DNA of 64,000 nt from Octopus vulgaris (taxonomy: Eukaryota). The translations under genes and the position numbers were made by a program. The stretch covers positions 30,938,001-31,002,000 of the forward strand of contig OX597839.1 of NCBI GenBank assembly GCA_951406725.2. Reading direction: 5' to 3'. The notes beneath the pieces are model-generated. The model saw nothing but the letters and a program-made list of their open reading frames with translations. It was not told the DNA's origin and ran no database searches. Shown here piece by piece: positions 6,931-45,186 of this stretch. Positions within the stretch are counted from its first letter, which is position 1. Each line of letters begins with the position of its first letter.

Positions 6931-8739
6931 TCACAAAAGTTTTTCTCTTCCAGGAACTTGTATTCTTAGGTGTTTTCTTGTATCAGCTTTTCGAATGAAA
7001 ACATTGAACATTTCCTTACTTTTAATGAAAGAATCCCAGAATTCAGGGAAAAACTCCCTTTTCAATAATGCAATCACAGCCTCAGTATCATTGTTAATCT
7101 CAGGCTGAGATTCAGTTTTGTTATCATCCATCTCATTAACAGTTATCAAAAATGTGATGATGCTTGTTGGATATTTGGATAGCATTGTTCTCAGACTATC
7201 ATTAGTAATCTCATTAGAGTCTTCATCACATACAACAATAATATCAAAAAAACTAAATTCATTAAGAGGTATGGAAGCAATTTCTTCCATTAACAACTTT
7301 TGGTTAAAAATAAATGATACATCCCAGTCTGGAATATCTCTTGAAAAATGTTCGTGCAATATTTCGTTTTGTTCCAGACCTTCCACAATAAATATTTTCC
7401 TTTTATCTGTTTTTCCTTCCGATGGATTATTTTTCAAATCGAATTTTTTAGCAATGAAGATATTGAACATTTCCTCGTGTCTGAAGAAAGCTTTTATGTA
7501 GTCTTCAAAAATATTCTTTTTCACTATTCTGAAGACGGGTTTGGGAATCTGAGCATCACCAAAACTCACAGGTTTTGTGTCGGAATGAAAAACATAACCG
7601 TTATCATCATTCCCATCAACAATTATCAAAAATGCGATGATGCTTGGTGGAAACTTTGGTAAGAGTTCTTTTTCAATACGAGCCAAAATTGTTTTCAGAC
7701 TTTCATTAGTAATATGGTTACCCTCTTCATCACATAGAACAATAATATCAAAATAACTAAATTCATTCAGAGCTATGGAAGTAATTTGTTGCATTAACGA
7801 CTTTTGGTTTAAAAGAAAAGACACATCCCAGTCTGGATTTCTTTCTGCAAAATGTTTGTGTAATTTTTCATCTTGTTCCAGACCTTCCACAATAAATATT
7901 TTCCTTTTGTCTGTTGTTTCTTCTACTGGTTTATTATCTACGAGACTTTTTTCCGATAGGAATTTTTTATCAATGAAAATATTGAACGTTTCCTCACTTT
8001 TAAAGAAAGCTTCTAGGAATCCATGCAAGAACTTTCTTTTCAAAATTCTAAGGACTGGTTTAAGCATCTGAGCATCACCAAAACTCACAGGTTTTGTGTC
8101 GGAATGAAAAACATAACCGTTATCATCATTCCCATCAACAATAATCAAAAGAGTGATGATGCTTGGTGGAAACTTTGGTAAGAGTTCTTTTTCAACATGG
8201 GGTATCATTGTTTTCATACTTTTATTAGTAATGCCATTAAGTTGATCATCGCAGGAAACAATAATATCAAAATAACTGAACTTATTCTCTGGTATGGAAC
8301 CAATTTCCTCCTTTAATTTGGTTATAGAGCCTAAAATAAAAGACACATCCCAGTCTGGATTACTTGAATAACATTCACGTAATTTTTCGTCTTCGTTCAT
8401 ACCTTGCAGAATAAATACTTTTCTTTTGTCTCTTGCTTGTGGCTTTGGTTTTTCTTGGTCAACTTCTCTTCCCATTTTCGTAAAGTATTCTTGGAATTGT
8501 TTCTTTAAAGATTCGTTTCCTGTTTCGGAAAGAATCTTGATGAAAGTTTCAGGTAAACAATTTCTTTTTTGTAAAATCTCCAACATTTTCCGAATTCTGT
8601 TGCTTTCTGTATTTTGTGATTTTATAGTTTCGTAATTTCTAGTTGTGATATGACCATCAGACTGTAAATAATCCAGAACATCATCGATTTGAGTGAGATT
8701 CTGGATAATTTGTGGCCGAAGTCTCACGTAAACCTCCAT
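6931..8739 (-). CDS. Paralog 1: CARD-like domain + 3 copies of the ~170-aa repeat domain (602 aa, single coding exon)
   Basis: Uninterrupted ORF whose first ATG (8739, MEVYVRLRPQII) aligns with the ATG of the other paralogs. The N-terminus LRPQIIQNLTQIDDVLDYLQSDGHIT..YETIKS..T...RIRKMLEIL.KR....FIKILSETG fits the CARD consensus. Repeat domains begin (DKRK) at 8430, 7911 and 7407. Confidence 0.9.
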   Translation of the reverse strand: MEVYVRLRPQIIQNLTQIDDVLDYLQSDGHITTRNYETIKSQNTESNRIRKMLEILQKRNCLPETFIKILSETGNESLKKQFQEYFTKMGREVDQEKPKPQARDKRKVFILQGMNEDEKLRECYSSNPDWDVSFILGSITKLKEEIGSIPENKFSYFDIIVSCDDQLNGITNKSMKTMIPHVEKELLPKFPPSIITLLIIVDGNDDNGYVFHSDTKPVSFGDAQMLKPVLRILKRKFLHGFLEAFFKSEETFNIFIDKKFLSEKSLVDNKPVEETTDKRKIFIVEGLEQDEKLHKHFAERNPDWDVSFLLNQKSLMQQITSIALNEFSYFDIIVLCDEEGNHITNESLKTILARIEKELLPKFPPSIIAFLIIVDGNDDNGYVFHSDTKPVSFGDAQIPKPVFRIVKKNIFEDYIKAFFRHEEMFNIFIAKKFDLKNNPSEGKTDKRKIFIVEGLEQNEILHEHFSRDIPDWDVSFIFNQKLLMEEIASIPLNEFSFFDIIVVCDEDSNEITNDSLRTMLSKYPTSIITFLITVNEMDDNKTESQPEINNDTEAVIALLKREFFPEFWDSFIKSKEMFNVFIRKADTRKHLRIQVPGREKLL

Positions 8740-8997
8740 TTTGAAAAACGGTGTAAAAAGCACGAAGTAGAGCACGAAAAATTAGTCCATTACTTCCGGA
8801 TTTGCAATTCAGATAATTTCTCAAAGACGGGTGCAGAGACAACAAAAATGGCAATATAATGTGAATATAGAATAACAAATAGTCTAAGTAAAGCATGGTG
8901 GAGGTAAAGAATACGCAGGCCATCCGTTTTCGGCGTAACAAAAACCCTAACACTTAACACCGGGTGTTCGTATTCTTTACCTTCGCATAAAGGCCAC

Positions 8998-17285: not shown

Positions 17286-20200
17286 TCACAAAAGTTTTTC
17301 TCTTCCAGGAACTTGTATTCTTAGGTGTTTTCTTGTATCAGCTTTTCGAATGAAAACATTGAACATTTCCAGACTTTTAATGAAAGAATCCCAGAATTCA
17401 GGGAAAAACTCCCTTTTCAATAATGCAATCACAGCCTCAGTATCATTGTTAATCTCAGGCTGAGATTCAGTTTTGTTATCATCCATCTCATTAACAGTTA
17501 TCAAAAATGTGATGATGCTTGTTGGATAATTGGATAGCATTGTTCTCAGACTTTCATTAGTAATCTCATTAGAGTCTTCATCACATACAACAATAATATC
17601 AAAAAAACTAAATTCATTAAGAGGTATGGAAGCAATTTCTTCCATTAACGACTTTTGGTTTAAGATAAATGATACATCCCAGTCTGGAATATCTCTTGAA
17701 AAATGTTCGTGCAATATTTCGTTTTGTTCCAGACCTTCCACAATAAATATTTTCCTTTTATCTGTTTTTCCTTCCGATGGATTATTTTTCAAATCGAATT
17801 TTTTAGCAATGAAGATATTGAACATTTCCTCGTGTCTGAAGAAAGCTTCTATGTAGTCTTCAAAAATATTCCTTTTCACTATTCTGAAGACGGGTTTGGG
17901 GATCTGAGCATCACCAAAACTCACAGGTTTTGTGTCGGAATGAAAAACATAACCATTATCATCATTCCCATCAATAATTATCAAAAATGCGATGATGCTT
18001 GGTGGAAACTTTGGTAAGAGTTCTTTTTCAATACGAGCCAAAATTGTTTTCAGACTTTCATTAGTAATATGGTTACCCTCTTCATCGCATAAAACAATAA
18101 TATCAAAATAACTAAATTCATTCAGAGCTATGGAAGTAATTTGTTGCATTAACGACTTTTGGTTTAAAAGAAAAGACACATCCCAGTCTGGATTTCTTTC
18201 TGCAAAATGTTTGTGTAATTTTTCGTCTTGTTCCAGACCTTCCACAATAAATATTTTCCTTTTATCTGTTTTTCCTTCCGATGGATTATTTTTCATAAAA
18301 TTGCTTTCCAAATCGAATTTTTTAGCAATGAAGATATTGAACATTTCATCGTGTCTGAAGAAAGCTTCTATGTAGTCATCAAAAATATTCTTTTTCACTA
18401 TTCTGAAGACGGGTTTTGGAATCTGAACATCACCAAAACTCACAGGTTTTGTGTCGGAATGAAAAACATAACCACTATCATCATTCCCATCAACAATAAT
18501 CAAAAAAGTGATGATGCTTGGTGGAAACTTTGGTAAGAGTTCTTTTTCAATACGAGCCAAAATTGTTTTCAGACTTTCATTAGTAATATGGTTACCCTCT
18601 TCATCGCATAAAACAATAATATCAAAATAACTGAATTCATTTGGAGCTATGGAAGCAATTTTCTCCTTTAATTTGGTTAGAGAGCCTAAAATAAAAGACA
18701 CATCCCAGTCTGGATTTCTTTCTGCAAAATGTTTGTGTAATTTTTCGTCTTGTTCCAGACCTTCCACAATAAATATTTTCCTTTTATATGTTTTTCCTTC
18801 CGATGGATTATTTTTCATAAAATTGCTTTCCAAATCGAATTTTTTAGCAATGAAGATATTGAACATTTCATCGTGTCTGAAGAAAGCTTCTATGTAGTCT
18901 TCAAAAATATTCTTTTTCACTATTCTGAAGACGGGTTTGGGAATCTGAGCATCACCAAAACTCACAGGTTTTGTGTCGGAATGAAAAACATAACCGTTAT
19001 CATCATTCCCATCAATAATAATCAAAAAAGTGATGATGCTTGATGGAAACTTTGGTAAGAGTTCTTTTTCAATACGAGCCAAAATTGTTTTCAGACTTTC
19101 ATTAGTAATATGGTTACCCTCTTCATCGCATAAAACAATAATATCAAAATAACTGAATTCATTTGGAGCTATGGAAGCAATTTTCTCCTTTAATTTGGTT
19201 AGAGAGCCTAAAATAAAAGACACATCCCAGTCTGGATTTCTTTCTGCAAAATGTTTGTGCAATTTTTCGTCTTGTTCCAGACCTTCCACAATAAATATTT
19301 TCCTTTTATCTGTTTTTCCTTCCGATGGATTATTTTTCATAAAATTGCTTTCCAAATCGAATTTTTTAGCAATGAAGATATTGAACATTTCATCGTGTCT
19401 GAAGAAAGCTTCTATGTAGTCTTCAAAAATATTCTTTTTCACTATTCTGAAGACGGGTTTGGGAATCTGAGCATCACCAAAACTCACAGGTTTTGTGTCG
19501 GAATGAAAAACATAACCGTTATCATCATTCCCATCAATAATAATCAAAAAAGTGATGATGCTTGATGGAAACTTTGGTAAGAGTTCTTTTTCAATACGAG
19601 CCAAAATTGTTTTCAGACTTTCATTAGTAATATGGTTACCCTCTTCATCGCATAAAACAATAATATCAAAATAACTGAATTCATTTGGAGCTATGGAAGC
19701 AATTTTCTCCTTTAATTTGGTTAGAGAGCCTAAAATAAAAGACACATCCCAGTCTGGATTTCTTTCTGCAAAATGTTTGTGTAATTTTTCGTCTTGTTCC
19801 AGACCTTCCACAATAAATATTTTCCTTTTATCTGTTTTTCCTTCCGATGGATTATTTTTCATAAAATTGCTTTCCAAATCGAATTTTTTAGCAATGAAGA
19901 TATTGAACATTTCATCGTGTCTGAAGAAAGCTTCTATGTAGTCTTCAAAAATATTCTTTTTCACTATTCTGAAGACGGGTTTGGGAATCTGAGCATCACC
20001 AAAACTCACAGGTTTTGTGTCGGAATGAAAAACATAACCGTTATCATCATTCCCATCAATAATAATCAAAAAAGTGATGATGCTTGATGGAAACTTTGGT
20101 AAGAGTTCTTTTTCAATACGAGCCAAAATTGTTTTCAGACTTTCATTAGTAATATGGTTACCCTCTTCATCGCATAAAACAATAATATCAAAATAACTGA

Positions 20201-22751
20201 ATTCATTTGGAGCTATGGAAGCAATTTTCTCCTTTAATTTGGTTAGAGAGCCTAAAATAAAAGACACATCCCAGTCTGGATTTCTTTCTGCAAAATGTTT
20301 GTGCAATTTTTCGTCTTGTTCCAGACCTTCCACAATAAATATTTTCCTTTTATCTGTTTTTCCTTCCGATGGATTATTTTTCATAAAATTGCTTTCCAAA
20401 TCGAATTTTTTAGCAATGAAGATATTGAACATTTCATCGTGTCTGAAGAAAGCTTCTATGTAGTCTTCAAAAATATTCTTTTTCACTATTCTGAAGACGG
20501 GTTTGGGAATCTGAGCATCACCAAAACTCACAGGTTTTGTGTCGGAATGAAAAACATAACCGTTATCATCATTCCCATCAATAATAATCAAAAAAGTGAT
20601 GATGCTTGATGGAAACTTTGGTAAGAGTTCTTTTTCAATACGAGCCAAAATTGTTTTCAGACTTTCATTAGTAATATGGTTACCCTCTTCATCGCATAAA
20701 ACAATAATATCAAAATAACTGAATTCATTTGGAGCTATGGAAGCAATTTTCTCCTTTAATTTGGTTAGAGAGCCTAAAATAAAAGACACATCCCAGTCTG
20801 GATTTCTTTCTGCAAAATGTTTGTGTAATTTTTCGTCTTGTTCCAGACCTTCCACAATAAATATTTTCCTTTTATCTGTTTTTCCTTCCGATGGATTATT
20901 TTTCATAAAATTGCTTTCCAAATCGAATTTTTTAGCAATGAAGATATTGAACATTTCATCGTGTCTGAAGAAAGCTTCTATGTAGTCATCAAAAATATTC
21001 TTTTTCACTATTCTGAAGACGGGTTTGGGAATCTGAGCATCACCAAAACTCACAGGTTTTGTGTCGGAATGAAAAACATAACCGTTATCATCATTCCCAT
21101 CAATAATAATCAAAAAAGTGATGATGCTTGATGGAAACTTTGGTAAGAGTTCTTTTTCAATACGAGCCAAAATTGTTTTCAGACTTTCATTAGTAATATG
21201 GTTACCCTCTTCATCGCATAAAACAATAATATCAAAATAACTGAATTCATTTGGAGCTATGGAAGCAATTTTCTCCTTTAATTTGGTTAGAGAGCCTAAA
21301 ATAAAAGACACATCCCAGTCTGGATTTCTTTCTGCAAAATGTTTGTGCAATTTTTCGTCTTGTTCCAGACCTTCCACAATAAATATTTTCCTTTTATCTG
21401 TTTTTCCTTCCGATGGATTATTTTTCATAAAATTGCTTTCCAAATCGAATTTTTTAGCAATGAAGATATTGAACATTTCATCGTGTCTGAAGAAAGCTTC
21501 TATGTAGTCTTCAAAAATATTCTTTTTCACTATTCTGAAGACGGGTTTGGGAATCTGAGCATCACCAAAACTCACAGGTTTTGTGTCGGAATGAAAAACA
21601 TAACCGTTATCATCATTCCCATCAATAATAATCAAAAAAGTGATGATGCTTGATGGAAACTTTGGTAAGAGTTCTTTTTCAATACGAGCCAAAATTGTTT
21701 TCAGACTTTCATTAGTAATATGGTTACCCTCTTCATCGCATAAAACAATAATATCAAAATAACTGAATTCATTTGGAGCTATGGAAGCAATTTTCTCCTT
21801 TAATTTGGTTAGAGAGCCTAAAATAAAAGACACATCCCAGTCTGGATTTCTTTCTGCAAAATGTTTGTGTAATTTTTCATCTTGTTCCAAACCTTCCAGA
21901 ATAAAAACTTTCCTTTTGTCTCCTGTTTCTTCTACTGGTTTCTTATCTCCAAGACTTTTTTCCCATAGGAATTTTATATCAATGAAAATATTGAACGTTT
22001 CCTCACTTTTTAAGAAAGCTTCTAGGAATCCATGCAAGAACTTTATTTTCAATATTCTAAGGACTGGTTTGCGAATCTTAGCATCCCTAAAACTCACGGG
22101 TTTTGTGTCGGAATGAAAAACATAACCACTATCATCATTCCCATCAACAATAATCAAAAAAGTGATGATGCTTGGTGGAAACTCCGGTAAGAGTTCTTTT
22201 TCAATACGAGGCAAAATTGTTTTCAGACTTTCATTAGTAATATAATTATAGTCTTCATCGCATAAAACAATAATATCAAAATAACTGAACTTATTCTCTG
22301 GTACGGAACCAATTACCTCCTTTAATTTGTTTATAGAACCTAAATGATTTGATACTTCCCAGTCTGGATTTTTTCTTGAAAAACATTCAAGTAATATTTC
22401 GTCTTGTTCCATACCTTCCAGAATAAATACTCTCCGTTTGTCTCTTGCTTGTGGCATTGGTTTTTCTTCAACAACTTCTCTTTCCATTTTCGGTAAGTGT
22501 TCTTGGAATAGTTTGTTTAAAGATTCGTTTCCTGTTTTGGAAAGAATCTTCACAAACGTTTGAGGAGGACAACTTCTTTTTGTTAAAATGTTCAACATTT
22601 CTCGAATTTTGTCGCTGTCTTTCTTTTCTGATCTTATACTTTCATAATTGCTCTCTGTGATATGTTCACCAGACTGTAAATAATCCAGAACATCATCGAT
22701 TTGAGTGAGATTCCGGATAATTTGTGGCCGAAGTTTCACGTAAACATTCAT
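17286..22751 (-). CDS. Paralog 2: CARD-like domain + 10 copies of the repeat domain (1821 aa, single coding exon)
   Basis: 5.5-kb uninterrupted ORF with ATG at 22751 (the ORF track starts at an upstream TTG). Domain starts at 22442, 21920, 21398, 20876, 20354, 19832, 19310, 18788, 18266 (522-bp spacing) and 17762. Confidence 0.9.
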   Translation of the reverse strand: MNVYVKLRPQIIRNLTQIDDVLDYLQSGEHITESNYESIRSEKKDSDKIREMLNILTKRSCPPQTFVKILSKTGNESLNKLFQEHLPKMEREVVEEKPMPQARDKRRVFILEGMEQDEILLECFSRKNPDWEVSNHLGSINKLKEVIGSVPENKFSYFDIIVLCDEDYNYITNESLKTILPRIEKELLPEFPPSIITFLIIVDGNDDSGYVFHSDTKPVSFRDAKIRKPVLRILKIKFLHGFLEAFLKSEETFNIFIDIKFLWEKSLGDKKPVEETGDKRKVFILEGLEQDEKLHKHFAERNPDWDVSFILGSLTKLKEKIASIAPNEFSYFDIIVLCDEEGNHITNESLKTILARIEKELLPKFPSSIITFLIIIDGNDDNGYVFHSDTKPVSFGDAQIPKPVFRIVKKNIFEDYIEAFFRHDEMFNIFIAKKFDLESNFMKNNPSEGKTDKRKIFIVEGLEQDEKLHKHFAERNPDWDVSFILGSLTKLKEKIASIAPNEFSYFDIIVLCDEEGNHITNESLKTILARIEKELLPKFPSSIITFLIIIDGNDDNGYVFHSDTKPVSFGDAQIPKPVFRIVKKNIFDDYIEAFFRHDEMFNIFIAKKFDLESNFMKNNPSEGKTDKRKIFIVEGLEQDEKLHKHFAERNPDWDVSFILGSLTKLKEKIASIAPNEFSYFDIIVLCDEEGNHITNESLKTILARIEKELLPKFPSSIITFLIIIDGNDDNGYVFHSDTKPVSFGDAQIPKPVFRIVKKNIFEDYIEAFFRHDEMFNIFIAKKFDLESNFMKNNPSEGKTDKRKIFIVEGLEQDEKLHKHFAERNPDWDVSFILGSLTKLKEKIASIAPNEFSYFDIIVLCDEEGNHITNESLKTILARIEKELLPKFPSSIITFLIIIDGNDDNGYVFHSDTKPVSFGDAQIPKPVFRIVKKNIFEDYIEAFFRHDEMFNIFIAKKFDLESNFMKNNPSEGKTDKRKIFIVEGLEQDEKLHKHFAERNPDWDVSFILGSLTKLKEKIASIAPNEFSYFDIIVLCDEEGNHITNESLKTILARIEKELLPKFPSSIITFLIIIDGNDDNGYVFHSDTKPVSFGDAQIPKPVFRIVKKNIFEDYIEAFFRHDEMFNIFIAKKFDLESNFMKNNPSEGKTDKRKIFIVEGLEQDEKLHKHFAERNPDWDVSFILGSLTKLKEKIASIAPNEFSYFDIIVLCDEEGNHITNESLKTILARIEKELLPKFPSSIITFLIIIDGNDDNGYVFHSDTKPVSFGDAQIPKPVFRIVKKNIFEDYIEAFFRHDEMFNIFIAKKFDLESNFMKNNPSEGKTYKRKIFIVEGLEQDEKLHKHFAERNPDWDVSFILGSLTKLKEKIASIAPNEFSYFDIIVLCDEEGNHITNESLKTILARIEKELLPKFPPSIITFLIIVDGNDDSGYVFHSDTKPVSFGDVQIPKPVFRIVKKNIFDDYIEAFFRHDEMFNIFIAKKFDLESNFMKNNPSEGKTDKRKIFIVEGLEQDEKLHKHFAERNPDWDVSFLLNQKSLMQQITSIALNEFSYFDIIVLCDEEGNHITNESLKTILARIEKELLPKFPPSIIAFLIIIDGNDDNGYVFHSDTKPVSFGDAQIPKPVFRIVKRNIFEDYIEAFFRHEEMFNIFIAKKFDLKNNPSEGKTDKRKIFIVEGLEQNEILHEHFSRDIPDWDVSFILNQKSLMEEIASIPLNEFSFFDIIVVCDEDSNEITNESLRTMLSNYPTSIITFLITVNEMDDNKTESQPEINNDTEAVIALLKREFFPEFWDSFIKSLEMFNVFIRKADTRKHLRIQVPGREKLL
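18267..21920 (-). repeat. Seven near-identical coding tandem repeats of 522 bp (174 aa)
   Basis: Exact 522-bp period with only scattered SNPs between units. The reading frame is preserved throughout. Confidence 0.97.
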
Positions 22752-28288: not shown

Positions 28289-28335
28289 AAAACCTGTTAC
28301 TCTCAGTTTCCCGTTGCCGTTCATCAGACAGTTTT
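28289..28335 (-). ncRNA. Minimal type I hammerhead ribozyme copy (stem III mismatch)
   Basis: ACUGU-CUGAUGA-ACGGCAACGG-GAAAC-UGAGA-GUA-ACAGG, inside an inverted pLTR pair (28261-28287 / 28354-28379). Confidence 0.65.
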
Positions 28336-29953: not shown

Positions 29954-31189
29954 TTTTGGCAAATAATGTAATGTCCTGAATAGGAATTCTCGAGAAATGA
30001 ATGTCGTGTCTTATTTCCGGGTTTTGTGATTCGTCCTCTTTTAGTTTTCTCTCTCTCTCTCTCCACTTTTCTATGTACTTATGTGTGTGTGTGTGTGACT
30101 AAACACTTGGTAATTGATATTTCTTTACTTCGGGTATTTACAACTAATACTATACATTAGTTTCGACAGATTTCATGCTCAACCGATGTACAGAACAAAA
30201 AATATTGTCGGAAAGAATATTATTGTTCATGACAATACGATGATGTTAATAACGCCCTGTGCAAGTGACTTCTGTATGTAGCCTCGGGCTGACCAGTGTA
30301 TATAACCACAGGCTGATGCGTGTGTGTTTCCCTCCGCCACCACCTGACAACTGGTATCAGTGTATTTAGGTCACTGTGACGTAGCAGTTCAGCAAAAAGC
30401 AAACTGGTCATCTTCGATTCTTACAACCCGTTTCAATCAATACTCAATAATCTAATTACAAATTTACATTTACGTGTCAGGAGTGTAATTTCATCAGAGG
30501 GAAAAAACATAACTTTGGATGTTATATTATGTGGGCTTATCCATTTATTTTGACATGACCAGTTTGCTGTTGATAATAAACAATTCTTAACTTCCTTATC
30601 TCCATTTTCTTTTCTCCTTCATACACACACACACACACACACACATATATATCAGGGTATCAGACATTTTGTTGTTATACACCACTGGTTACAATGCACC
30701 TCTACACACAGTTGTAGCTGTTGAATGTTACCCCCCTGCTGCCCAGGTGGACGAAGCCAACATATCCCCCCAACTCCCGGCAAATAGAATGCCATTCCAT
30801 TACAGGTTTACCCCTTTGCAGCCGAGTGGACTGGGGTTCAGGTGAAAGAAAGTGTTTTGCTTGAATTCATAAGCATCCAGGGTATTAAAACATTAATCTA
30901 GTGACGTGGAGTGCAACGTCCTAACCATTAAGACGTCTTTACACACACATACACACACACAAACACACACACTCTCTCTCTCTCTCACACACACACACAG
31001 ACAAAGTTCCTGGTTTTCAGGATATGCTAATCTCTCAACTATTGTAGGTGCTATGTTCCGGAACCCCCTGTGATAGGGGAAAATCCACAAAGTAGAAACA
31101 GTACTGTACTGTATATATATATATATTTTTTTTTAATCATTTTTATAATTTGTATATATTTTATTATAAATACAAAACAAACACCACGG

Positions 31190-31810
31190 AAAATGTCTGG
31201 CATGTTCATTCATGTGTGCCCTGGCATATCTGATGACCTACTCAGGGTTGGAGACACAAGAAAGACAGCCATCATCGACCATGAACTAAGGAGGCTCAAC
31301 ATAGACATTGCTGGATTGCAAGAGACAAGACACCCCTCACACAGCAAACTCAAAGAATAGGACTTCACCTTCTTCTGGCAGGGAAGAGATCCAGAGGAAC
31401 ATCGTCAGCATGGTGTTGGCTTTGCAGTGAGAAACTCATTACTCTCCTCAGTAGACCCACCATCAGGAAGCGCTGAGCGTATCCTCTCTGTGTGCTTCTT
31501 AAGCTCTTCAAACCCAGGACATCTACTGAGCATCTATGCTCCCACTCTCTACAGCTCAGAAGAGACCAAGGACCAGGTCTACAAAGCTCTGAACTGCGTC
31601 ATTACAAACATACCAACCAACGAAAACATCTACCTTCTAGGAGATTTTAACGCTCACGTGGGATCTGACCATTACTTGTGGCCCATTTGTGTTGGACATT
31701 TTGGCATTGGCAATATGAATGACGATGGTCAGAGACTGCTTGAATGCTGCACATAGCATAACCTGTGCATCACCAACAAATTCTTTGCCAACAAGCCATC
31801 CCACAGGGCT
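31190..31810 (+). mobile_element. RTE LINE endonuclease remnant (duplicated copy)
   Basis: Same motifs as 23965-24585. Confidence 0.9.
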
Positions 31811-32651
31811 TGTCGTTACTTGCAGGCAATTTCGTTTTTTTTTTTTGTAACTTCTAAACTGCAAGATCATCTCGATTGATAAGAAATGTAAATGTTTCCC
31901 CATCCCTTGGCTTTTTTCCGGCAGCTAGGAAATTTCAAATAGCTTAATCTTGCGTAGTCATCATCATCATCATCTTTTAACGTCGATTTCCATGCTGGCA
32001 TGGGTTGGACGGTTTTACTGAGGACTGGCAAGCCAGTGGTCTACAGCAGGCTCCAATCTGATCTGGCAAGGTTTCTACAGCTGGATGCCCTTCCTAACCC
32101 CAACCACTCTGAGAGTGTAGTGGGTGCTTCAAACATGTTCAGAAGGTACCTTTTATATGTCACCGGCATGGGAGTCAGTCAGGGGCCACTAGCATTGACC
32201 ATGTTCGGATGGGGTATTTTATGTGCCACCAGCATGGAAGCCAGTCAGGTGGCACTGGCCACGGCTATGATTTCAATTTTATATGATTCAACAGGTCCTC
32301 TCAATCATATATCCCCTGATGCTTCCAAGATACTTTGAAATGGGCCGGTCATGCAACACTGGCATTGGCCATAGCTGCAATCTCCCTTTCCTTGCTGTAT
32401 CCTGAAATTTACTGTAAGATATAAAAATGATGTAAATTTGTTTCAAGTTGCATTTTGGGGTTGATAAAATCTACCCTGGTTCAGTCTTGATGGCAAAAGA
32501 AAAAACTGAATGACTTCAATATTGCTGTAGAGAAAAAAAGACTACATGTTGAGGTATTTTAGCATCACAGATGCATGGTTTGCATTTATAAAGGAACATG
32601 TGGAGCAGAAAGCATTGGTTGGAGATGGTGGCCTAAAAACCACATTACATA

Positions 32652-33163
32652 TCTATATATATAAAACTGTAGTTGTGTGCTGTCTGTCCCCTTCGATTTA
32701 GATTCCTAACTACTCCCACATTTTGCGGTGCAGTTTAACCAAATTCGGGTATCTTATAGTCGTGATTTATATCGAGCCCGTCTGGGTATTAGCGCGCGTC
32801 TACGATGAGTCTACGATCTTTAAAATAATTTAATATCATTTTTTATTCCATTTTAATGCATAATTTTTTGTGTGTCGATGGCGGCGGAGTTGGCGTCCAT
32901 GGTCACACCTGCACCTGTTTGCTTCTCCCCCTTCTTCCCTCCCTCGTGAAGCTGTGGGGAAGGGAGTGTAAGGAAATCAACGTCGTAAAGCGTTGTCAAG
33001 GAGACCAGCGTTCTTTTAGAACAACGACTTCATGGCTTGAAGACACCAAAACAGAAATGGCTAAGGAAGCCCGAATTGGCATCTATAAGGGAAGTAACTC
33101 TCTAAAAATGCTTATATAGTTATTTCCCTTACAAACCCGAGCAACGCCGGGCGATACTGCTAG
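32652..33163 (+). mobile_element. Non-autonomous Helitron (512 bp)
   Basis: Begins TC(TATATATATAAAA) and ends CTAG with a subterminal CCCG..CGGG hairpin (33136-33151). Inserted between A and T with no TSD. Empty sites at 25419/25420 and 40943/40944. Confidence 0.93.
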
Positions 33164-34248
33164 TTATGTATATATGGGAAAATGTCAGGCATGTTCATTC
33201 ATGTGTGAGTGTCTATATATTGAAAAGAAAAAGACTACCTACCTATGTATACCACACCAATTACATGTCATTATTTCTAAGCTGACAGGAATCTACAAGC
33301 TATATGACTGTTAGCAGGCAAGTTAAAGTGTAATACAATCACTTGTACATTCAAATGGGGTCGCGTTTGTTTAGGTGTAAATGTCGGCTCAATAATGGTT
33401 GGGAAAACATGAGAGTAGAGTAGCTGAGCGGTTTTGAAATTTGTAAGAGAGGAGAAATGCTTCAACCGTTCATATTTTATTTGATAGGGAAGAAAGAGAG
33501 GAAGTTCCTCATAGAATATTCATTGTAGGAGAGAGTTAGAATCAAAAGAAGTGGTGGCGGGTATTCTTTTACATTTGAATATAACTTAAATGTTTGGTTC
33601 TAACTTCAGTTGTAATATTTTTAGGTTTCCCTTTCCCAATTTCTACTTTTCCAGGTTCAAATATTTAACAATATCATCATTCCTGCTGGTCCTCTTTCAT
33701 TACAGGCAACAATTTGTACAGCTGGAAAAAGTATTCATTATTCAGACAAAACACAAACACCAACAAATGAAAACAAATAGAAATTTTTATTTAACAAACT
33801 TTAAACTGTAGTAAAAAACAGATTTTAGAAATTGGTATAAAATGAAATACATAAAAATTGTATCGAAGAACCTACGGAAAAAGAGTAAAATATTTATTAA
33901 GCAGCTGAAGATCAATGGAATTATTATAGTTCGAAAGAAGTTAAGGGCATCAACAAGATTGACTCATATTTTGATATTTCACACAATCCTTCATGGTTTT
34001 TCATATATTTCCCACAAAATACTCGGTGTTTCTTCCCCTTATGTATAATAGCAGAAACAGTACCCCTTCGGTGGTTGTTTACTAGGATGTCATGGTTACT
34101 TGTAGGAAACTATGTACACTCACCCACCCATACACACACTAAATAGTATATACATGTGTGTGTTTGTATGTATGTATGTATATATATATATTGTTTGTAG
34201 AAAAACATAAATCTGTATAAGAAGCACATTCTAAGATGTAGACCACTT

Positions 34249-34287
<39 letters not shown>

Positions 34288-34289
<2 letters not shown>

Positions 34290-35590
34290 TTTATTTTAAG
34301 CAGCAGAAAATTCAACAAAATCTGTTACTCTGAGTTTCTCGTTGCCGTTCATCAGACAGTTTTTGCTAGAATGGAACATATATCAATTCAATCTATATAC
34401 TCTTACAAACGCTACACCTTTAAAAAGAAATGGACTTGTTTGATTGGCCCTTTAGAAAAAACGGTCAATCTTCGAACGATAAACAAAAAGGTCAAAAATA
34501 TATGTATATATATATAAAAACTTATAAAAAATTATAAAAATTATAAAAATTATAAAATCCGAGGAAAAAACCTATTGACGTTAATGAAGACAGTGCAAAT
34601 TAATGCATAGAAATTAAACCTGTTATAAATACTGCAATACATATTTATATTAAAATCCACATATATATATCAACATACACAAAAGGATGCGCGTAAACGC
34701 CATACATACATATACAGACGTATGAATATAAGTCTAAATATACACATAAAAGCATGTGTACATATATTCACGCAAACCGTCTCGCACGCAAGCTAAAATT
34801 CATCTACGTAGCAATTCTCATATACTGAGCAAGGAGGGGGAACGAAAGAAAGGGAAAGAGAGAAAAAAGAAACGAAGGAGGGGTGGGGAAAAAAACGAAA
34901 TAAGCAGTGTAACGATGTTATTGGCATCTATAGAGACCAGTATACATACACAAGTTTGAATGGATACATATACATACCGTCGTGTATATGCGTGCGTAAG
35001 CACAAACATACTTTCACTTACACATACACAGATACGCATGCTTACAAATACATATGCTTTGCTATACACATACTTATATAAACATTCTAATTTTGACAAC
35101 ATTGCTTTTTTTAAAAAACATTGCTTTTAAAAATGGGTGCATTAATAAAAATATATACGAAAGACATATAAAATAAAATATAACATCCTATTTTGGGTCA
35201 TTGATAAATAATCAAGGTAATATAAATAATCAATGTAATCCTATGCAATACAATAACATGAAAACAAAGTTTGTAGGTTTTTCCTAATATATATGTAGAA
35301 ACATAAGACTTTGCTATACGGATTAAGATCCGTATAGCATGGAAACAAAATCCATCGTAGCGCTCAAGAGTCAAAATCAAAATCAAAAATCAAAAATACA
35401 AAATATATACTCTATCCATATGGTATATTTATATTCGACATTTTAAATTTAGCCGCGTGCCTACATAAGTTCATTAACTCACTTCTTTGATTCAAAGAAT
35501 TATTGTCTTTGAATAAGATGTACATTTTCTAAAATAGACAAAGTCTGCACTTGAAATTATTTTTGTAAGCTCCATGCCTGTATGGTGCCA
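34288..35590 (-). mobile_element. Penelope-like 3' remnant (duplicated copy)
   Basis: Copy of 26535-27830. Confidence 0.85.
34317..34363 (-). ncRNA. Minimal type I hammerhead ribozyme copy
   Basis: Identical core to 26563-26609. Confidence 0.75.
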
Positions 35591-35815
35591 AGATAGGGGT
35601 TATGGGTGTAACCCACTATGGGATATCAATTATATGGATTTCAATAATTTATAATATGACTTTTAAAATCTGTATTTGTATTATTATCTTATCTATTGAT
35701 TTATAGAATATTTTGTATGCTTTTGGTGTCCTCATTTGTAAAATGAATAAATAATCCAAATTAATATCCGTAAGATGATGAATAAACTAAATTTGTTTCT
35801 CCATTTTCTTATTTG

Positions 35816-35870
<55 letters not shown>

Positions 35871-35925
35871 GAGAGAGAGAGAGAGATTGATGGAAACTGA
35901 TAGAAGCATGTCATATATATTATCA

Positions 35926-35966
<41 letters not shown>

Positions 35967-36063
35967 GGAGAAAACACATAAATGTGAAACAAGGTGGAAA
36001 AAAGAGTACTCAAATACCAGTGGTAGAGTAATATGCTTTATTTAAAGCAGCAGAAAATTCAAC

Positions 36064-36110
36064 AAAACCTGTTACTCTGAGTTTCCCGTTGCCGTTCATC
36101 AGACAGTTTT
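36064..36110 (-). ncRNA. Minimal type I hammerhead ribozyme copy
   Basis: AAAACUGU-CUGAUGA-ACGGCAACGG-GAAAC-UCAGA-GUA-ACAGGUUUU. Confidence 0.75.
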
Positions 36111-36872
36111 TGCTCGACGAACGGCATTTGAATTTTCTGCTGCTTTAAATAAAGTATATATATATATATATATGCAACAGGCTTCTTTCAGTTTCCATCT
36201 ACTAATCTGCTGACAAATCTTTCGTCACCCTCAGTCTACAGTAGAAGACATTTGCTCAAGTGACATGCAGTGGGATTGAACCCAGACCCATGTGGTTGAG
36301 AAGCTAACAAGTATGAGGAAACACAGCTGAGTTAGTGAAATATCCTTCCTCCCCCAGTATTTCCACAACAAACTCTGAGTTACTCACAATCTGAAAGCTA
36401 TCTGCAGAAAATTATACTAAAATACACCCAAATTTTTGCAAGTTATGAAAAAATAAAACTGAATTGCATGAATTTTCCAAAACTCCTCTCCAAATACTCT
36501 TGGAAATTGTTTTTTTCCTCAAATTCCTATATATTCAGGATCTTCAGCACCTAAAAGGTATTTAGTAAAAATTTCAATAATATATATCCATTTTTCTGAA
36601 GGGTATGAGAAGAAAAATATCCAGGTTGAGGTGTGCTTCGTTACACATAACTGGTATAACTTGTTTAGTAATGCCAGCACTTATTAGATTTAAAGTGGTT
36701 AACCTCTATAGTTACCTTTGAAATGTTTGGGGATTCCTTACTATTGGATGTGATTCTGGAACATTTATGGGAGTTTGTGCTGTTTTTAATTGCACCATCA
36801 GTCAATTTGCTTTTAGTATAATAAAAAAAAAAATGTTCAGTTAAAACTCCAAGACGAACAAAGTCCTTTCCT

Positions 36873-38258
36873 TCAACAAACTTGTAATCCTAGCTGTTTT
36901 CTTGTATCAGCTTTTCGAATAAAAACATTGAACATTTCTTTACTTTCGGTGAAAGCATTAAAGAATTCTTTGCAAGAGTCTGCTTTGAGTACTCCAGTCA
37001 CTGTTTGGGATTCTGGTAAGTCATTCATATTCACAGATTGGGGTTCTTGCACAGGCCTGGAATCTTGAAGACCGTCCCAATTCACAGATTGGGATTCTGG
37101 CACAGGCTTAGATTCAGTCTCTTTATCATTAACAATAATCAAAAGAGTGATGATGCTTGGTGGAAACTTCGGTAAGAGTTCTTTTCCAATACAAGGCAAA
37201 ATTGTTTTCAGACTTTCATTAGTAATATGGTTATCCTCTTCATCGCATAAAACAATAATATCAAAATAACTGAACATATTCTCTGGTATGGAATCAATTT
37301 CCCCCATTAATTTTTTTATAGAACCTAAAAGAGTCGAGACATCCCAGTCTGGATTACTTTCTGAAAAACATTCATGTAATTTTTCGTCTACGTCCATACC
37401 TTCCAGAATAAATATTTTCCTTTTATCTGTTTTTCCTTCCGATAGCTTATTTTTCATAAAATTGTTTTCCGAATCGAATTTTTTAGCAATGAAAATATCG
37501 AACGTTTCCTCACTTTTAAAGAAAGCTTCTACGAATCCATGCAAGAACTTTCTTGTCAATATTCTAAGGACTGGTTTGCGAATCTTAGCATCACCAAAAC
37601 TCACGGGTTTTGTGTCGGAATCAAAAACATAATCATTATCATCATTCCCATCAACAATAATCAAAAAAGTGATGATGCTTGGTGGAAACTCCGGTAAGAT
37701 TTCTTTTTTAATACGAGCCAAAATTGTTTTCAGACTTTCATTAGTAATATAATTATAGTCTTCATCGCATAAAACAATAATATCAAAATAACTGAACTTA
37801 TTCTCTGGTACGGAACCAATTACCTCCTTTAATTTGTTTATAGAACCTAAATGATTTGATACTTCCCAGTCTGGATTTCTTTCTGAAAAACATTTATGTA
37901 ATATTTCGTCTTGTTCCAGACCTTCCAGAATAAATACTTTCCTTTTATCTCTTGCTTGTGGCATTGGTTTTTCTTCAACAACTTCTCTTTCTATTTTCGG
38001 TAAGTATTCTTGGAATTGTTTCTCTAAAAATTCGTTTCTTGTCTTGGAAAGAATCTTCACGAACGTTTGAGGAGGACAACTTCCTTCTGTTAAAATTTTC
38101 AACATTTCTCGAATTTTGTCGAGTTCATCCTTTTCTGATCTTATACTTTCATAATTGCTCACTGTGATATGATCACCATACAATAAACAATCCAGAACAT
38201 AATCGATTTCAGTGAGATTCCGGATAATTTGTGGCCGAAGTTTCACGTAAACATTCAT
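36873..38258 (-). CDS. Paralog 4: CARD-like domain + 2 repeat domains (461 aa)
   Basis: Intact ORF, ATG at 38258. Most divergent CARD among paralogs 2-5. Confidence 0.9.
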   Translation of the reverse strand: MNVYVKLRPQIIRNLTEIDYVLDCLLYGDHITVSNYESIRSEKDELDKIREMLKILTEGSCPPQTFVKILSKTRNEFLEKQFQEYLPKIEREVVEEKPMPQARDKRKVFILEGLEQDEILHKCFSERNPDWEVSNHLGSINKLKEVIGSVPENKFSYFDIIVLCDEDYNYITNESLKTILARIKKEILPEFPPSIITFLIIVDGNDDNDYVFDSDTKPVSFGDAKIRKPVLRILTRKFLHGFVEAFFKSEETFDIFIAKKFDSENNFMKNKLSEGKTDKRKIFILEGMDVDEKLHECFSESNPDWDVSTLLGSIKKLMGEIDSIPENMFSYFDIIVLCDEEDNHITNESLKTILPCIGKELLPKFPPSIITLLIIVNDKETESKPVPESQSVNWDGLQDSRPVQEPQSVNMNDLPESQTVTGVLKADSCKEFFNAFTESKEMFNVFIRKADTRKQLGLQVC

Positions 38259-39489
38259 TTTTGGCAAATAATGTAATGTCCTGAATAGGAATTCTCGAGA
38301 AATGAATGTCGCGTCTTATTTCCGGGTTTTGTGATTCGTCCTCTTTTAGTTTTCTCTTTCTCTCTCTCCACTTTTCTATGTACTTATGTGTGTGTGTGTG
38401 TGACTAAACACTTGGTAATTGATATTTCTTTACTTCGGGTATTTACAACTAATACTATACATTAGTTTCGACAGATTTCATGCTCAACCGATGTACAGAA
38501 CAAAAAATATTGTCGGAAAGAATATTATTGTTCATGACAATACGATGATGTTAATAACGCCCTGTGCAAGTGACTTCTGTATGTAGCCTCGGGCTGACCA
38601 GTGTATATAACCACAGGCTGATGCGTGTGTGTTTCCCTCCGCCACCACCTGACAACTGGTATCAGTGTATTTAGGTCACTGTGACGTAGCAGTTCAGCAA
38701 AAAGCAAACTGGTCATCTTCGATTCTTACAACCCGTTTCAATCAATACTCAATAATCTAATTACAAATTTACATTTACGTGTCAGGAGTGTAATTTCATC
38801 AGAGGGAAAAAACATAACTTTGGATGTTATATTATGTGGGCTTATCCATTTATTTTGACATGACCAGTTTGCTGTTGATAATAAACAATTCTTAACTTCC
38901 TTATCTCCATTTTCTTTTCTCCTTTATACACACACACACACACACACATATATATCAGGGTATCAGACATTTTGCTGTTATACACCACTGGTTACAATGC
39001 ACCTCTACACACAGTTGTAGCTGTTGAATGTTACCCCCCTGCTGCCCAGGTGGACGAAGCCAACATATCCCCCCCACTCCCGGCAAATAGAATGCCATTC
39101 CATTACAGGTTTACCCCTTTGCAGCCGAGTGGACTGGGGTTCAGGTGAAAGAAAGTGTTTTGCTTGAATTCATAAGCATCCAGGGTATTAAAACATTAAT
39201 CTAGTGATGTGGAGTGCAACGTCCTAACCATTAAGACGTCTTTACACACACAAAAATACACACACATACATACACACACACTCTCTCTCTCACACACACA
39301 CACACAGACAAAGTTCTTGGTTTTCAGGATATGCTAATCTCTCGACTATCGTAGGTGCTGTGTACCGGAACCCCCTGTGATAGGGGAAAATCCACAAAGT
39401 AGAAACAGTACTGTATATATATGTATATTTTTTAATCATTTTTATAATTTGTATATATTTTATTATAAATACAAAACAAACACCACGGA

Positions 39490-40110
39490 AAATGTCTGGC
39501 ATGTTCATTCATGTGTGCCCTGGCATATCTGATGACCTACTCAGGGTTGGAGACACAAGAAAGACAGCCATCATCGACCATGAACTAAGGAGGCTCAACA
39601 TAGACATTGCTGGATTGCAAGAGACAAGACACCCCTCACACAGCAAACTCAAAGAATAGGACTTCACCTTCTTCTGGCAGGGAAGAGATCCAGAGGAACC
39701 TCGTCAGCATGGTGTTGGCTTTGCAGTGAGAAACTCATTACTCTCCTCAGTAGACCCACCATCAGGAAGCGCTGAGCGTATCCTCTCTGTGTGCTTCTTA
39801 AGCTCTTCAAACCCAGTACATCTACTGAGCATCTATGCTCCCACTCTCTACAGCTCAGAAGAGACTAAGGACCAGGTCTACAAAGCTCTGAACTGCGCCA
39901 TTACAAACATACCAACCAACGAAAACATCTACCTTCTAGGAGATTTTAACGCTCACGTGGGATCTGACCATTACTTGTGGCCCATTTGTGTCAGACATTT
40001 TGGCATTGGCAATATGAATGACGATGGTCAGAGACTGCTTGAATGCTGCACATAGCATAAACTGTGCATCACCAACAAATTCTTTGCCAACAAGCCATCC
40101 CACAGGGCTT
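39490..40110 (+). mobile_element. RTE LINE endonuclease remnant (duplicated copy)
   Basis: Same motifs as 23965-24585. Confidence 0.9.
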
Positions 40111-42031
40111 GTCGTTACTTGCAGGCAATTTCGTTTTCATTTTTTTTAACTTCTAAACTGCAAGATCATCTCGATTCATAAGAAATGCAAATGTTTCCCC
40201 ATCCCTTGGCTTTTTTCCGGTAGCTAGGAAATTTCAAATAGCTTAATCTTGGGTAGTCATCATCATCTTTTAACGTCTGCTTTCCATGCTGGCATGGGTT
40301 GGACGGTTTTACTGAGGACAGGCAAGCCAGTGGGCTACAGCAGGCTCCAATCTGATCTGGCAAGGTTTCTACAGCTGGATACCCTTCCTAACCCCAACCA
40401 CTCTGAGAGTGTAGTGGGTGCTTCAAACATGTTCAGAAGGTACCTTTTACATGCTACCGGCATGGGAGTCAGTCAGGGGGCACTAGCATTGACCATGTTC
40501 AGATGGGGTATTTTATGTGCCACCAGCATGGAAGCCAGTCAGGTGGCACTGGCCACGGCTATGATTTCAATTTTATATGATTCAACAGGTCCTCTCAATC
40601 ATATATCCCCTGATGCTTCCAAGATACTTTGAAATGGGCCGGTCATGCAACACTGGCATTGGCCATAGCTGCAATCTCCCTTTCCTTGCTGTATCCTGAA
40701 ATTTACTGTAAGATATAAAAATGATGTAAATTTGTTTCAAGTTGCATTTTGGGGTTGATAAAATCTACCCTGGTTCAGTCTTGATGGCAAAAGAAAAACT
40801 GAATGACTTCAATATTGCTGTAGAGAAAAAAGACTACATGTTGAGGTATTTTAGCATCACAGATGCATGGTTTGCATTTATAAAGGAACATGTGGAGCAG
40901 TAAACATTGGTTGGAGCTGGTGGCCTAAAAACCACATTACATATTATGTATATATGGGAAAATGTCAGGCATGTTCATTCATGCGTGAGTGTCTATATAT
41001 TGAAAAGAAAAAGACTACCTACCTATGTATACCACACCAATTACATGTCATTATTTCTAAGCTGACAGGAATCTACAAGCTATATGACTGTTAGCAGGCA
41101 AGTTAAAGTGTAATACAATCACTTGTACATTCAAATGGGGTCGCGTTTGTTTAGGTGTAAATGTCGGCTCAATAATGGTTGGGAAAACATGAGAGTAGAG
41201 TAGCTGAGCGGTTTTGAAATTTGTAAGAGAGGAGAAATGCTTCAACCGTTCATATTTTATTTGATAGGGAAGAAAGAGAGGAAGTTCCTCATAGAATATT
41301 CATTGTAGGAGAGAGTTAGAATCAAAAGAAGTGGTGGCGGGTATTCTTTTACATTTGAATATAACTTAAATGTTTGGTTCTAACTTCAGTTGTAATATTT
41401 TTAGGTTTCCCTTTCCCAATTTCTACTTTTCCAGGTTCAAATATTTAACAATATCATCATTCCTGCTGGTCCTCTTTCATTACAGGCAACAATTTGTACA
41501 GCTGGAAAAAGTATTCATTATTCAGACAAAACACAAACACCAACAAATGAAAACAAAGAGAAATTTTTATTTAACAAACTTTAAACTGTAGTAAAAAACA
41601 GATTTTAGAAATTGGTATAAAATGAAATACATAAAAATTGTATCGAAGAACCTACGGAAAAAGAGTAAAATATTTATTAAGCAGCTGAAGATCAATGGAA
41701 TTATTATAGTTCGAAAGAAGTTAAGGGCATCAACAAGATTGACTCATATTTTGATATTTCACACAATCCTTCATGGTTTTTCATATATTTCCCACAAAAT
41801 ACTCGGTGTTTCTTCCCCTTATGTATAATAGCAGAAACAGTACCCCTTCGGTGGTTGTTTACTAGGATGTCATGGTTACTTGTAGGAAACTATGTACACT
41901 CACCCACCCATACACACACTAAATAGTATATACATGTGTGTGTTTGTATGTATGTATATATATATATATATTGTTTGTAGAAAAACATAAATCTGGATAA
42001 GAAGCACATTCTAAGATGTAGACCACTTAAA

Positions 42032-42088
<57 letters not shown>

Positions 42089-42137
42089 GAGAGAGAGATT
42101 GATGGAAACTGAAAGTAGCATGTCATATATATTATCA

Positions 42138-42173
<36 letters not shown>

Positions 42174-42250
42174 AATATTAGGGAATAAATCCAAATTTAC
42201 AGGGAAAAAAATCAGATTTAGGATTAAATCCAATTTTATAGTAAAATATT

Positions 42251-42463
42251 ATATAATATTAATTAGAGACAAAACCACTATTTTGCAAAACAAACAAGGA
42301 AAGACTTAATCAATACATAAAATTTTAATAAAATTTAATAAATTTTTTATTTTTTTTACTTTTTTTTACTTTTTTAAACTTTTTATTAAAATTTTATGTA
42401 TTGATTAAGTCTTTCCTTGTTTGTTTTGCAAAATAGTGGTTTTGTCTCTAATTAATATTATAT
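42251..42463. repeat. AT-rich fold-back (~80-bp arms) in (TA)n
   Basis: 42251-42332 is the reverse complement of 42381-42463. Confidence 0.85.
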
Positions 42464-42708
42464 ATATATATATATAGTAAGATAGGGGTTATGGGTGTAA
42501 CCCACTATGGGATATCAATTATATGGATTTCAATAATTTATAATATGACTTTTAAAATCTGTATTTGTATTATTATCTTATCTATTGATTTATATAATAT
42601 TTTTTATGGTTTTGATGTCCTCATTTGTAAAATGAATAAATAATCCAAATTAATATCCATAAGTTGATGAACAAACTAAATTTGTTTCTCCATTTTCTTA
42701 TTTGTATT

Positions 42709-42765
<57 letters not shown>

Positions 42766-42803
42766 TGATGGAAACTGAAAGAAGCATGTCATATATATTA
42801 TCA

Positions 42804-42847
<44 letters not shown>

Positions 42848-43710
42848 CGGAGTAAACACATAAATGTGAAACAAGGTGGAAAAAAGAGTACTCAAATACC
42901 AGTGGTAGAGTAATTTGCTTTATTTAAAGCAGCAAAAACTGTCCAACGAACGGCAACGGGAAACTCAGAGTAACAGGTTTTCTTGAATTTTCTGCTGCTT
43001 TAAATAAAGTATATATATATATATATACATGCAACAGGCTTCTTTCAGTTTCCATCTACTAATCTGCTGACAAATCTTTCGTCACCCTCAGTCTACAGTA
43101 GGAGACATTTGCTCAAGTGACATGCAATGGGATTGAACCCAGACCCATTTGGTTGAGAAGCTAACAAGTATGAGGAAACACAGTTGAGTTAGTGAAATAT
43201 CCTTCCTCCCCCAGTATTTCCACAACAAACTCTGAGTTAGTCACAATCTGAAAGCTATCTGCAGAAAATTTTACTAAAATACACCCAAATTTTTGCAAGT
43301 TATGAAAAAATAAAACTGACTTGCATGAATTTTCCAAAACTCCTCTCCAAATACTCTTGGAAATTGTTTTTTTCCTCAAATTCCTATATATTCAGGATCT
43401 TCAGCACCTAAAAGGTATTTAGTAAAAATTTCAATAATATATATCCATTTTTCTGAAGGGTATGAGAAGAAAAATATCCAGGTTGAGGTGTGGTTCGTTA
43501 CACATAACTGGTATAACTTGTGTAGTAATGCCAGCACTTATTAGATTTAAAGTGAATGTTTTCACGTAACATTCACCTCTATAGTTACCTTTCAAATGTT
43601 TGGGGATTCCTTACAATTGGATGTGATTCTGGAATATTTATGGGAGTTTGTGCTGTTTTTAATTGCACCATCAGTCAATTTGCTTTTAGTATAATAAAAA
43701 AAAAAAATGT

Positions 43711-45186
43711 TCAGTTAAAACTCCAAGATGAACAAAGTCCTTTCCTGCAATAAACTTGTAATCCTAGCTGTTTTCTTGTATCAGCTTTTCGAATAAAAAC
43801 ATTGAACATTTCTTTACTTTCGGTGAAAGCATTAAAGAATTCTTTGCAAGAGTCTGCTTTGAGTACTCCAGTCACTGTTTGGGATTCCGGAAAGTCATTC
43901 ATATTCTCAGATTGGGATTCCTGCACAGGCCTGGAATCTGGAAGATCGTCCGTATTCATCGATGGGGATTCCTGCACAGGCCTGGAATCTCGTTGACCGT
44001 CCATATTCACAGATTGGGATTCTTGCACAGGCTTAGATTCAGTCTCTTTATTATTAACAATAATCAAAAGAGTGATGATGCTTTGTGGAAACTTCGGTAA
44101 GAGTTCTTTTTCAATACAAGGCAAAATTGTTTTCAGACTTTCATTAGTAATATGGTTATCCTCTTCATCGCATAAAACAATAATATCAAAATAACTGAAC
44201 TTATTCTTTGGTAAGGAAGCAATCTTCTCCTTTAATATCTTTATAGAACCAAAAGGAGTTGATACTTCCCAGTCTGGATTACTTCCTGAAAAACATTTAC
44301 GTAATATTTCGTTTTGTTCCAGACCTTGCATAATAAATATTTTCCTTTTATCTGTTTTTCCTTCCGATGGATTATTTTTCATAAGATTGTTTTCCAAATC
44401 GAATTTTTTAGCAATGAAAATATCGAACGTTTCCAAACTTTTAAAGAAAGCTTCTACGAATCCATGCAAGAACTTTCTTGTCAATATTCTAAGGACTGGT
44501 TTGCGAATCTTAGCATCCCTAAAACTCACGGGTTTTGTGTCGGAATCAAAAACATAACCATTATCATCCTTCCCATCAACAATAATCAAAAAAGTGATGA
44601 TGCTTGGTGGAAACTTCGGTAAGAGTTCTTTTTCAATACAAGGCAAAATTGTTTTCAGACTTTCATTAGTAATATGCTTATCCTCTTCATCGCATGAAAC
44701 AATAATATCAAAATAACTGAACTGATTCTCTGGTAAGGAAGCAATCTTCTCCTTTAATTTGTTTATAGAACCTAAATGATTTGATACTTCCCAGTCTGGA
44801 TTTGTTTCTGCAAAATGTTTTTGTAATATTTCGTCTGCGTCCATACCTTCCAGAATAAATACTCTCCGTTTGTCTCTTTCTGGTGGCTTTGGTTTTTCTT
44901 CAACAACTTTTCTTTCAATTTTCATGTTCAAGTATTCTCGGAATAGTTTCTCTAAAAATTCGTTTCCTGTTTTGGAAAGAATCTCCACGAACGTTTGAGG
45001 AGGACAACTTCTTTTTGTTAAAATGTTCAACATTTCTCGAATTTTGTCGCTTTCTTTCTTTTCTGATCTTATACTTTCATAATTGCTCTCTGTGATATGT
45101 TCACCAGACTGTAAATAATCCAGAACATCATCGATTTGAGTGAGATTCCGGATAATTTGTGGCCGAAGTTTCTCGTAAACATTCAT
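43711..45186 (-). CDS. Paralog 5: CARD-like domain + 2 repeat domains (491 aa)
   Basis: Intact ORF, ATG at 45186. Three 17-aa linker repeats. TGC in place of the TGA of paralogs 3/4 extends the C-terminus. Confidence 0.9.
   Translation of the reverse strand: MNVYEKLRPQIIRNLTQIDDVLDYLQSGEHITESNYESIRSEKKESDKIREMLNILTKRSCPPQTFVEILSKTGNEFLEKLFREYLNMKIERKVVEEKPKPPERDKRRVFILEGMDADEILQKHFAETNPDWEVSNHLGSINKLKEKIASLPENQFSYFDIIVSCDEEDKHITNESLKTILPCIEKELLPKFPPSIITFLIIVDGKDDNGYVFDSDTKPVSFRDAKIRKPVLRILTRKFLHGFVEAFFKSLETFDIFIAKKFDLENNLMKNNPSEGKTDKRKIFIMQGLEQNEILRKCFSGSNPDWEVSTPFGSIKILKEKIASLPKNKFSYFDIIVLCDEEDNHITNESLKTILPCIEKELLPKFPQSIITLLIIVNNKETESKPVQESQSVNMDGQRDSRPVQESPSMNTDDLPDSRPVQESQSENMNDFPESQTVTGVLKADSCKEFFNAFTESKEMFNVFIRKADTRKQLGLQVYCRKGLCSSWSFN

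Follow-up and report, generated by a model that had tools for sequence, protein, structure and literature searches.

Five clustered genes, g1 to g5, lie in a 64,000-nucleotide stretch of the Octopus vulgaris genome (assembly GCA_951406725.2, contig OX597839.1, positions 30,938,001 to 31,002,000), hereafter the window, and encode proteins in which an N-terminal CARD precedes a single domain present in one to ten copies. Their open reading frames (ORFs) are all on the minus strand and each runs from ATG to stop, as an earlier sequence-only reading of the window had reported; its description of the genes as intronless holds for the coding region only. The repeated domain is most likely a degenerate, shrunken and catalytically dead caspase fold, as judged from a predicted structure. 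The genes and their parts are as follows, in window coordinates.

6931..8739, minus strand: g1, 602 aa; CARD (about 8476-8739) and three caspase-like repeats (7912-8430, 7408-7911, 6934-7407)
17286..22751, minus strand: g2, 1821 aa; CARD (about 22488-22751) and ten repeats
21921-22442 (d1), 18267-21920 (d2-d8, seven 522-bp units), 17763-18266 (d9) and 17289-17762 (d10), minus strand: repeats of g2
29093..29953, minus strand: g3, 286 aa; CARD and a single chimeric repeat (29096-29647)
36873..38258, minus strand: g4, 461 aa; CARD and two repeats (37428-37949, 36876-37427)
43711..45186, minus strand: g5, 491 aa; CARD and two repeats (44353-44874, 43714-44352)
43900..44032, minus strand: 51-bp (17-aa) tandem repeat within the last domain of g5

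The proposed N-terminal CARD was borne out when residues 1-90 were checked for a death fold: the Pfam CARD profile (PF00619) matched all five proteins over about residues 2-82, with 32-40 bits against a cut-off of 23.9. Past the CARD, where a CARD-only protein has no folded domain, each protein carries 1-10 further domains. Splitting the proteins at the motif [DY]KR[KR][VI]FI gave 18 repeats (3, 10, 1, 2 and 2 in g1-g5), 158-213 aa in size and 46-100% identical, in agreement with the variable copy number of one domain claimed previously. When the entire genome was searched in six frames, with a single repeat domain as query, at least 18 matches came back, every one within the window. The count of ten in g2 depends on one assembly, with repeats 3-7 only 0-2 bases apart; since a six-domain relative is present in O. 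sinensis, a repeat array is not peculiar to the O. vulgaris assembly.

The repeat escapes the standard caspase profile. Peptidase_C14 (PF00656) had no match in the five whole proteins (E up to 1) or in 11 aligned domains (E up to 10), and the window is absent from the genome search that found at least 81 caspase-domain matches, many of them in single-exon clusters. To compare folds, we used a structure model covering residues 1-160 of the first g4 repeat, which leaves the terminal tail outside. Caspases were the top matches in three structure searches, with E above 0.001 and receivers within 1 Z, and c-FLIP-L was among the top two. The aligned lengths were 128-143 residues for caspases and 109-122 for receivers, and Foldseek, which combines structure with sequence, matched caspases only. 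In the model, strands 4 and 5 are joined by a loop and not by a helix, and two helices follow strand 5; caspases have a loop and two helices at these same positions. The modelled 160 residues superpose as far as caspase-3 residue 242 and not beyond. The predicted topology is that of a caspase from strand 1 to the helix preceding the dimer strand, and we consider a caspase origin of the repeat probable.

At the sequence level the link is fainter. Neither profiles of the neighbouring CARD-caspases nor those of mixed octopus caspases could tell the repeat from shuffles. A family hidden Markov model (HMM) run over 1,493 ORFs, a set enriched for caspases by the way the loci were gathered, ranked 19 caspases of a cluster on contig C5, paralogs of one another, next after the family itself (best E 0.002). 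No shuffle out of 500 scored as high as the best two of the caspases tested against the HMM, while four others tested were weak or negative. In the reverse search, at most 2 of 500 shuffles scored as high for 6 of 14 domains.

Two alignment registers emerged. Register S, that of the structure, lays strand 3 on the His strand of the caspase and strand 4 on its Cys strand, and is followed by 10 of the 14 reverse matches and by pairwise global alignments of the first g4 repeat and the fourth g2 repeat to caspase; it sets LCD against SHG or THG, and IIVDG against QACRG. Register Q, seen in the forward HMM match, instead lays strand 4 of the family on the His strand, so that Asp replaces His, and Ala or Lys replaces Cys. 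The catalytic dyad is kept by no repeat in either register. All 18 carry [LSV]CD at the His-Gly site and II[VI]DG, ITVN or IIVN at the QACxG-type Cys site, with no His after strand 3 and no Cys after strand 4. By eye, the Arg-bearing loops after strands 1 and 5 are deleted in register S, where the 51-bp repeat of g5 would fall in the loop matching the caspase inter-subunit linker. All five terminal repeats extend into an additional tail, which contains a brief hydrophobic run (DTRKHLRIQV or DTRKQLGLQV); the internal ones (13 of 18) are without it and end in a mostly polar linker. It appears that the substrate-binding loops have been lost and that internal repeats are missing the dimer strand, in which case a repeat would neither cut, trap substrates, nor pair in the manner of c-FLIP-L.

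The known members of the family come from incirrate octopods in every case. Among 1.84 billion representatives searched with a profile, six matched at E up to 0.001: three from Octopus, an Argonauta protein, a 56-aa fragment and one spurious bacterial repeat protein. The Argonauta hians protein has a CARD and two domains (E 1.8e-19; about 35-39% identity). The O. sinensis relatives are LOC118768007/8/9, the one with six domains having a model without CARD; two "isoforms" of LOC118768009 share a C-terminus and carry g1-type and g2-type CARDs, and because they may be annotation joins between paralogs we did not use them for domain counts. The O. bimaculoides relative, LOC106872585, adjoins in gene number LOC106872587, the ortholog of an ORF neighbouring the genes in the window, and by these numbers the two loci look syntenic. 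A distant paralog on contig C20 (P0018) has a CARD and one domain, and itself has a 78% identical relative; its domain is weakly linked to the family (a score as high in 6 of 1,000 shuffles; an in-register alignment over 143 columns, with 1 of 25 nulls). In a tree of 53 CARDs, the sequences from the window group with those of O. sinensis, O. bimaculoides and Argonauta alone (96/86), and the tree assigns this clade no sister. The nearest CARDs in the genome include those of single-exon CARD-caspases on contig C26 (28-35% identity), 2.7 Mb from the window, and an octopod CARD-caspase is the likely source, the candidate donor, of the repeat genes.

The C26 cluster (33.70-33.81 Mb; L050-L062, L093-L102) comprises some 20 single-exon genes for CARD-caspases, fragments included, in which an unusual NTC replaces QAC. 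Several copies read NTYQ, having lost the catalytic Cys and kept SHG, and pseudocaspases seem to be arising anew there. Other tandem clusters with the caspase domain in one exon lie at C5:54.14-54.52 Mb, C19:7.04-7.13 Mb and C28:6.29-6.38 Mb, and some of the caspase-domain matches in the genome have degenerate sites (L042, L104-L106). Two further tandem CARD clusters were found at C24:38.85-39.06 Mb and C14:75.54-75.63 Mb (L118-L128, L131-L144); in the C14 ORFs an apparent second helical death-fold-like domain follows the CARD, by eye.

Genes g2-g5 lie in duplicated segments:

21620..45470: tandemly duplicated segments, each about 7-8 kb, that carry g2-g5; identity between paired blocks 96-97% (g2/g3/g4) or about 90% (g5)

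The chimerism claimed in the sequence-only reading was recovered in the g3 domain, which joins a first-type start to a last-type end: its first two 90-column windows are 98-100% like the first domains of g2 and g4, and its last four are 94-100% like the second domains of g4 and g5. Selection was assessed by simple counts that ignore recombination, in seven pooled tests with uncorrected p values. The nonsynonymous rate (dN) exceeded the synonymous rate (dS) in all ten CARD pairs, significantly in none, and the CARD alone gave p 0.11 when pooled. When g2-g5 were pooled, the CARD taken together with the opening 99 codons of domain 1 had 64 changes that were nonsynonymous against 8 that were synonymous (ratio 2.16, p 0.024), and the six young domains pooled gave a ratio of 2.04 (p 0.042). 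Low ratios were found for g2 repeats 2-8 (0.28, p 0.016) and for g1 against g2 over their last two domains (0.32, p 0.025). Upstream DNA of g2/g3/g4 is 1-2% apart, against 10-14% for CARD dN and 5.5-7% for CARD dS. On these patterns, the protein is constrained in its array and diversifying at its front end. The pattern of host-pathogen conflict genes proposed earlier stands as regards copy-number variation, chimerism and a conflict-like signal; an immune or cell-death role is a candidate function. The contrast between open CARD-gene frames and broken transposon ORFs was also found again, in that two nearby stretches resembling mobile-element remains, labelled by eye and without a Pfam match, have many stops, and the longest frames that stay open in them measure 236 and 193 codons. 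Since the duplications are young, however, open frames alone are little proof of function.

With the catalytic residues missing, the proteins are likelier to be rapidly evolving decoys for, or brakes on, cell-death signalling by caspases than to be proteases. We favour, at a probability of roughly 0.55, a family of CARD-tethered decoys acting at caspase activation platforms and built on predicted dead caspase folds. The CARD would dock on the CARD assemblies used by active CARD-caspases and displace those caspases, while the dead domains, having neither protease activity nor a substrate groove, would offer multivalent bait to host or pathogen proteins that recognise caspase surfaces, with avidity rising with repeat number. 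A CARD alone would be enough to compete at a platform, as for CARD16/17/18, which means that a separate role must be sought for the repeats, conserved and amplified as they are; multivalent bait for caspase-surface binders fits best. A bolder and rather unlikely version is an octopod-specific integrated-decoy sensor, in which the dead folds, as many as ten in a row, would bait pathogen caspase antagonists, whose engagement would free or cluster the CARD and fire the CARD-caspases. If true, it would be a guard of the death machinery in a phylum reported to be without Apaf-1, with repeat number as a tuning dial.

Among other explanations, the proteins might act like c-FLIP-L or coral caspase-X, with a dimer strand in the terminal repeat heterodimerising with an active octopus caspase to activate or retune it, and the internal repeats serving as spacers or scaffold. 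The high structural rank of c-FLIP-L, the restriction of the hydrophobic tail to the terminal repeats and the purifying selection on the last two domains of g1 and g2 all speak for this; but the tail, lying outside the model, was matched to the caspase dimer strand by eye, and it is the internal, polar-ended repeats that were amplified. We consider this account unlikely. Equally improbable is a non-caspase five-stranded alpha/beta domain (TIR, receiver, vWA-like or pseudo-GTPase), which would make the proteins CARD adaptors or CARD-coupled enzymes. The marks of a receiver (CheY-like) would be an acidic phosphoacceptor pocket and a fold of five strands in which a helix links strands 4 and 5. 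No Pfam TIR profile matched the proteins or domains, the fold searches covering listed families only. The longer caspase alignments, the caspase-like loop and helices of the model, the exclusively caspase Foldseek matches and the octopus caspases that outscore shuffles all argue against such a domain.

Were register Q correct, the repeats could instead be strings of stand-alone dead large (p20) subunits that capture small subunits or zymogens. The repeat length is compatible with p20, the family HMM pairs IVDGNDDN..VF.SD with LTHGEDDNQIFGTD of the cluster caspases, and a profile comparison follows this register (E 0.0006, probability 29%, 138 columns). Register Q, however, needs a helix then a strand where the model predicts a strand then a helix; the structural alignments continue into the small-subunit helices, and most reverse-search domains take the structural register. 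We regard this as very unlikely, and slightly more so that the genes are recent duplicates drifting without function or not expressed. The youth of the duplications lends drift some weight, by weakening the open-frame argument, but purifying selection on the array and terminal domains, the CARD-plus-two-domain layout retained in Argonauta and the apparent synteny in O. bimaculoides go against it.

Several features of the surrounding DNA were also noted. Three copies, 97-98% identical, of a sequence resembling a LINE 3' end lie at 8998-9522, 47404-47928 and 61316-61840, one of them stopping about 260 bases upstream of the g1 ATG. A 230-aa Cys/His-rich ORF (49986-50678, minus strand) is near-identical to O. 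bimaculoides LOC106872587, and one annotation fuses it with an upstream 1233-aa model bearing a Hedgehog-signal-type domain. The motif CCGGAA[AG]T, which we take to be ETS-like, is common to g2-g5 about 40-75 bases upstream of the ATG (e.g. 22790-22830), and occurs at about 8790-8805 for g1; TTCTCGAGAA (TTC-N4-GAA), presumably STAT-like, is also found upstream of the g2-g5 ATGs. At a similar upstream distance, the C26 CARD-caspases have [CT]AGGAAG.

Finally, we compared the family with known systems. Our literature search, with subscription journals and supplements outside it, found no description of these loci, nor of a CARD joined solely to a variable number of dead caspase domains. The claim of an unnamed, undescribed system holds as to published descriptions; yet the repeat, most probably a caspase fold that has degenerated, puts the family in the company of pseudocaspases already known (c-FLIP, caspase-12, the prodomain of caspase-16, coral caspase-X), so that the system is not new throughout. 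c-FLIP and caspase-12 are known to contain dead caspase domains (PMC11121540). c-FLIP-L likewise joins a death-fold prodomain to a caspase fold without catalytic residues (a predicted fold in the octopus), but has two DEDs and one full-size, readily recognised caspase domain and heterodimerises with caspase-8, whereas the octopus family has a CARD and 1-10 shortened, Pfam-undetected domains, the dimer strand apparently gone from internal repeats. Caspase-12 combines a CARD with a caspase domain predicted inactive (PMC11121540), which is, however, single and barely degenerate. The C26 CARD-caspases resemble the family in layout, a single ORF encoding a CARD and, immediately after it, a caspase domain, but pass Pfam Peptidase_C14 and mostly retain SHG and the Cys in NTC.

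Tandem caspase domains including a dead copy are reported for caspase-16 (PMC12198278) and coral caspase-X (PMC4715348), and one A. digitifera prediction bears four caspase domains (PMC4715348). Both caspase-16 and caspase-X keep an active C-terminal domain, with no CARD described in the accessible text of these reports; in the octopus family all domains are dead, the terminal repeats too being without His and Cys at the sites, and their number varies by paralog. CARD16/17/18 and the primate caspase-1 locus are reported as CARD regulators that arose from a caspase by tandem duplication and underwent gene conversion and positive selection (PMC7555848, PMC11383037). CARD16/17/18 reportedly compete at the activation platform by CARD alone (PMC7555848), having lost the caspase domain that the octopus family kept, shrank and multiplied. 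The C. elegans caspase paralogs CSP-2 and CSP-3 reportedly regulate other caspases, although the authors of PMC3591282 could not reproduce the CSP-3 effect, and dipteran caspase-like decoys are likewise reported as caspase regulators (PMC3141678); as described in the accessible text, neither is a CARD plus tandem repeats. A divergent "caspase-Y", to which the C26 CARD-caspases may correspond, has been described, and Apaf-1 and caspase-9 are reported missing from molluscs (PMC10959488), so that the octopus repeat proteins are concrete candidates for what recruits and restrains molluscan CARD-caspases. New to pseudocaspases is a CARD with dead caspase folds alone, 1 to 10 in tandem, beyond Pfam detection and fast-evolving, and this suggests that other invertebrate "CARD + unknown" genes may conceal caspase folds as well.
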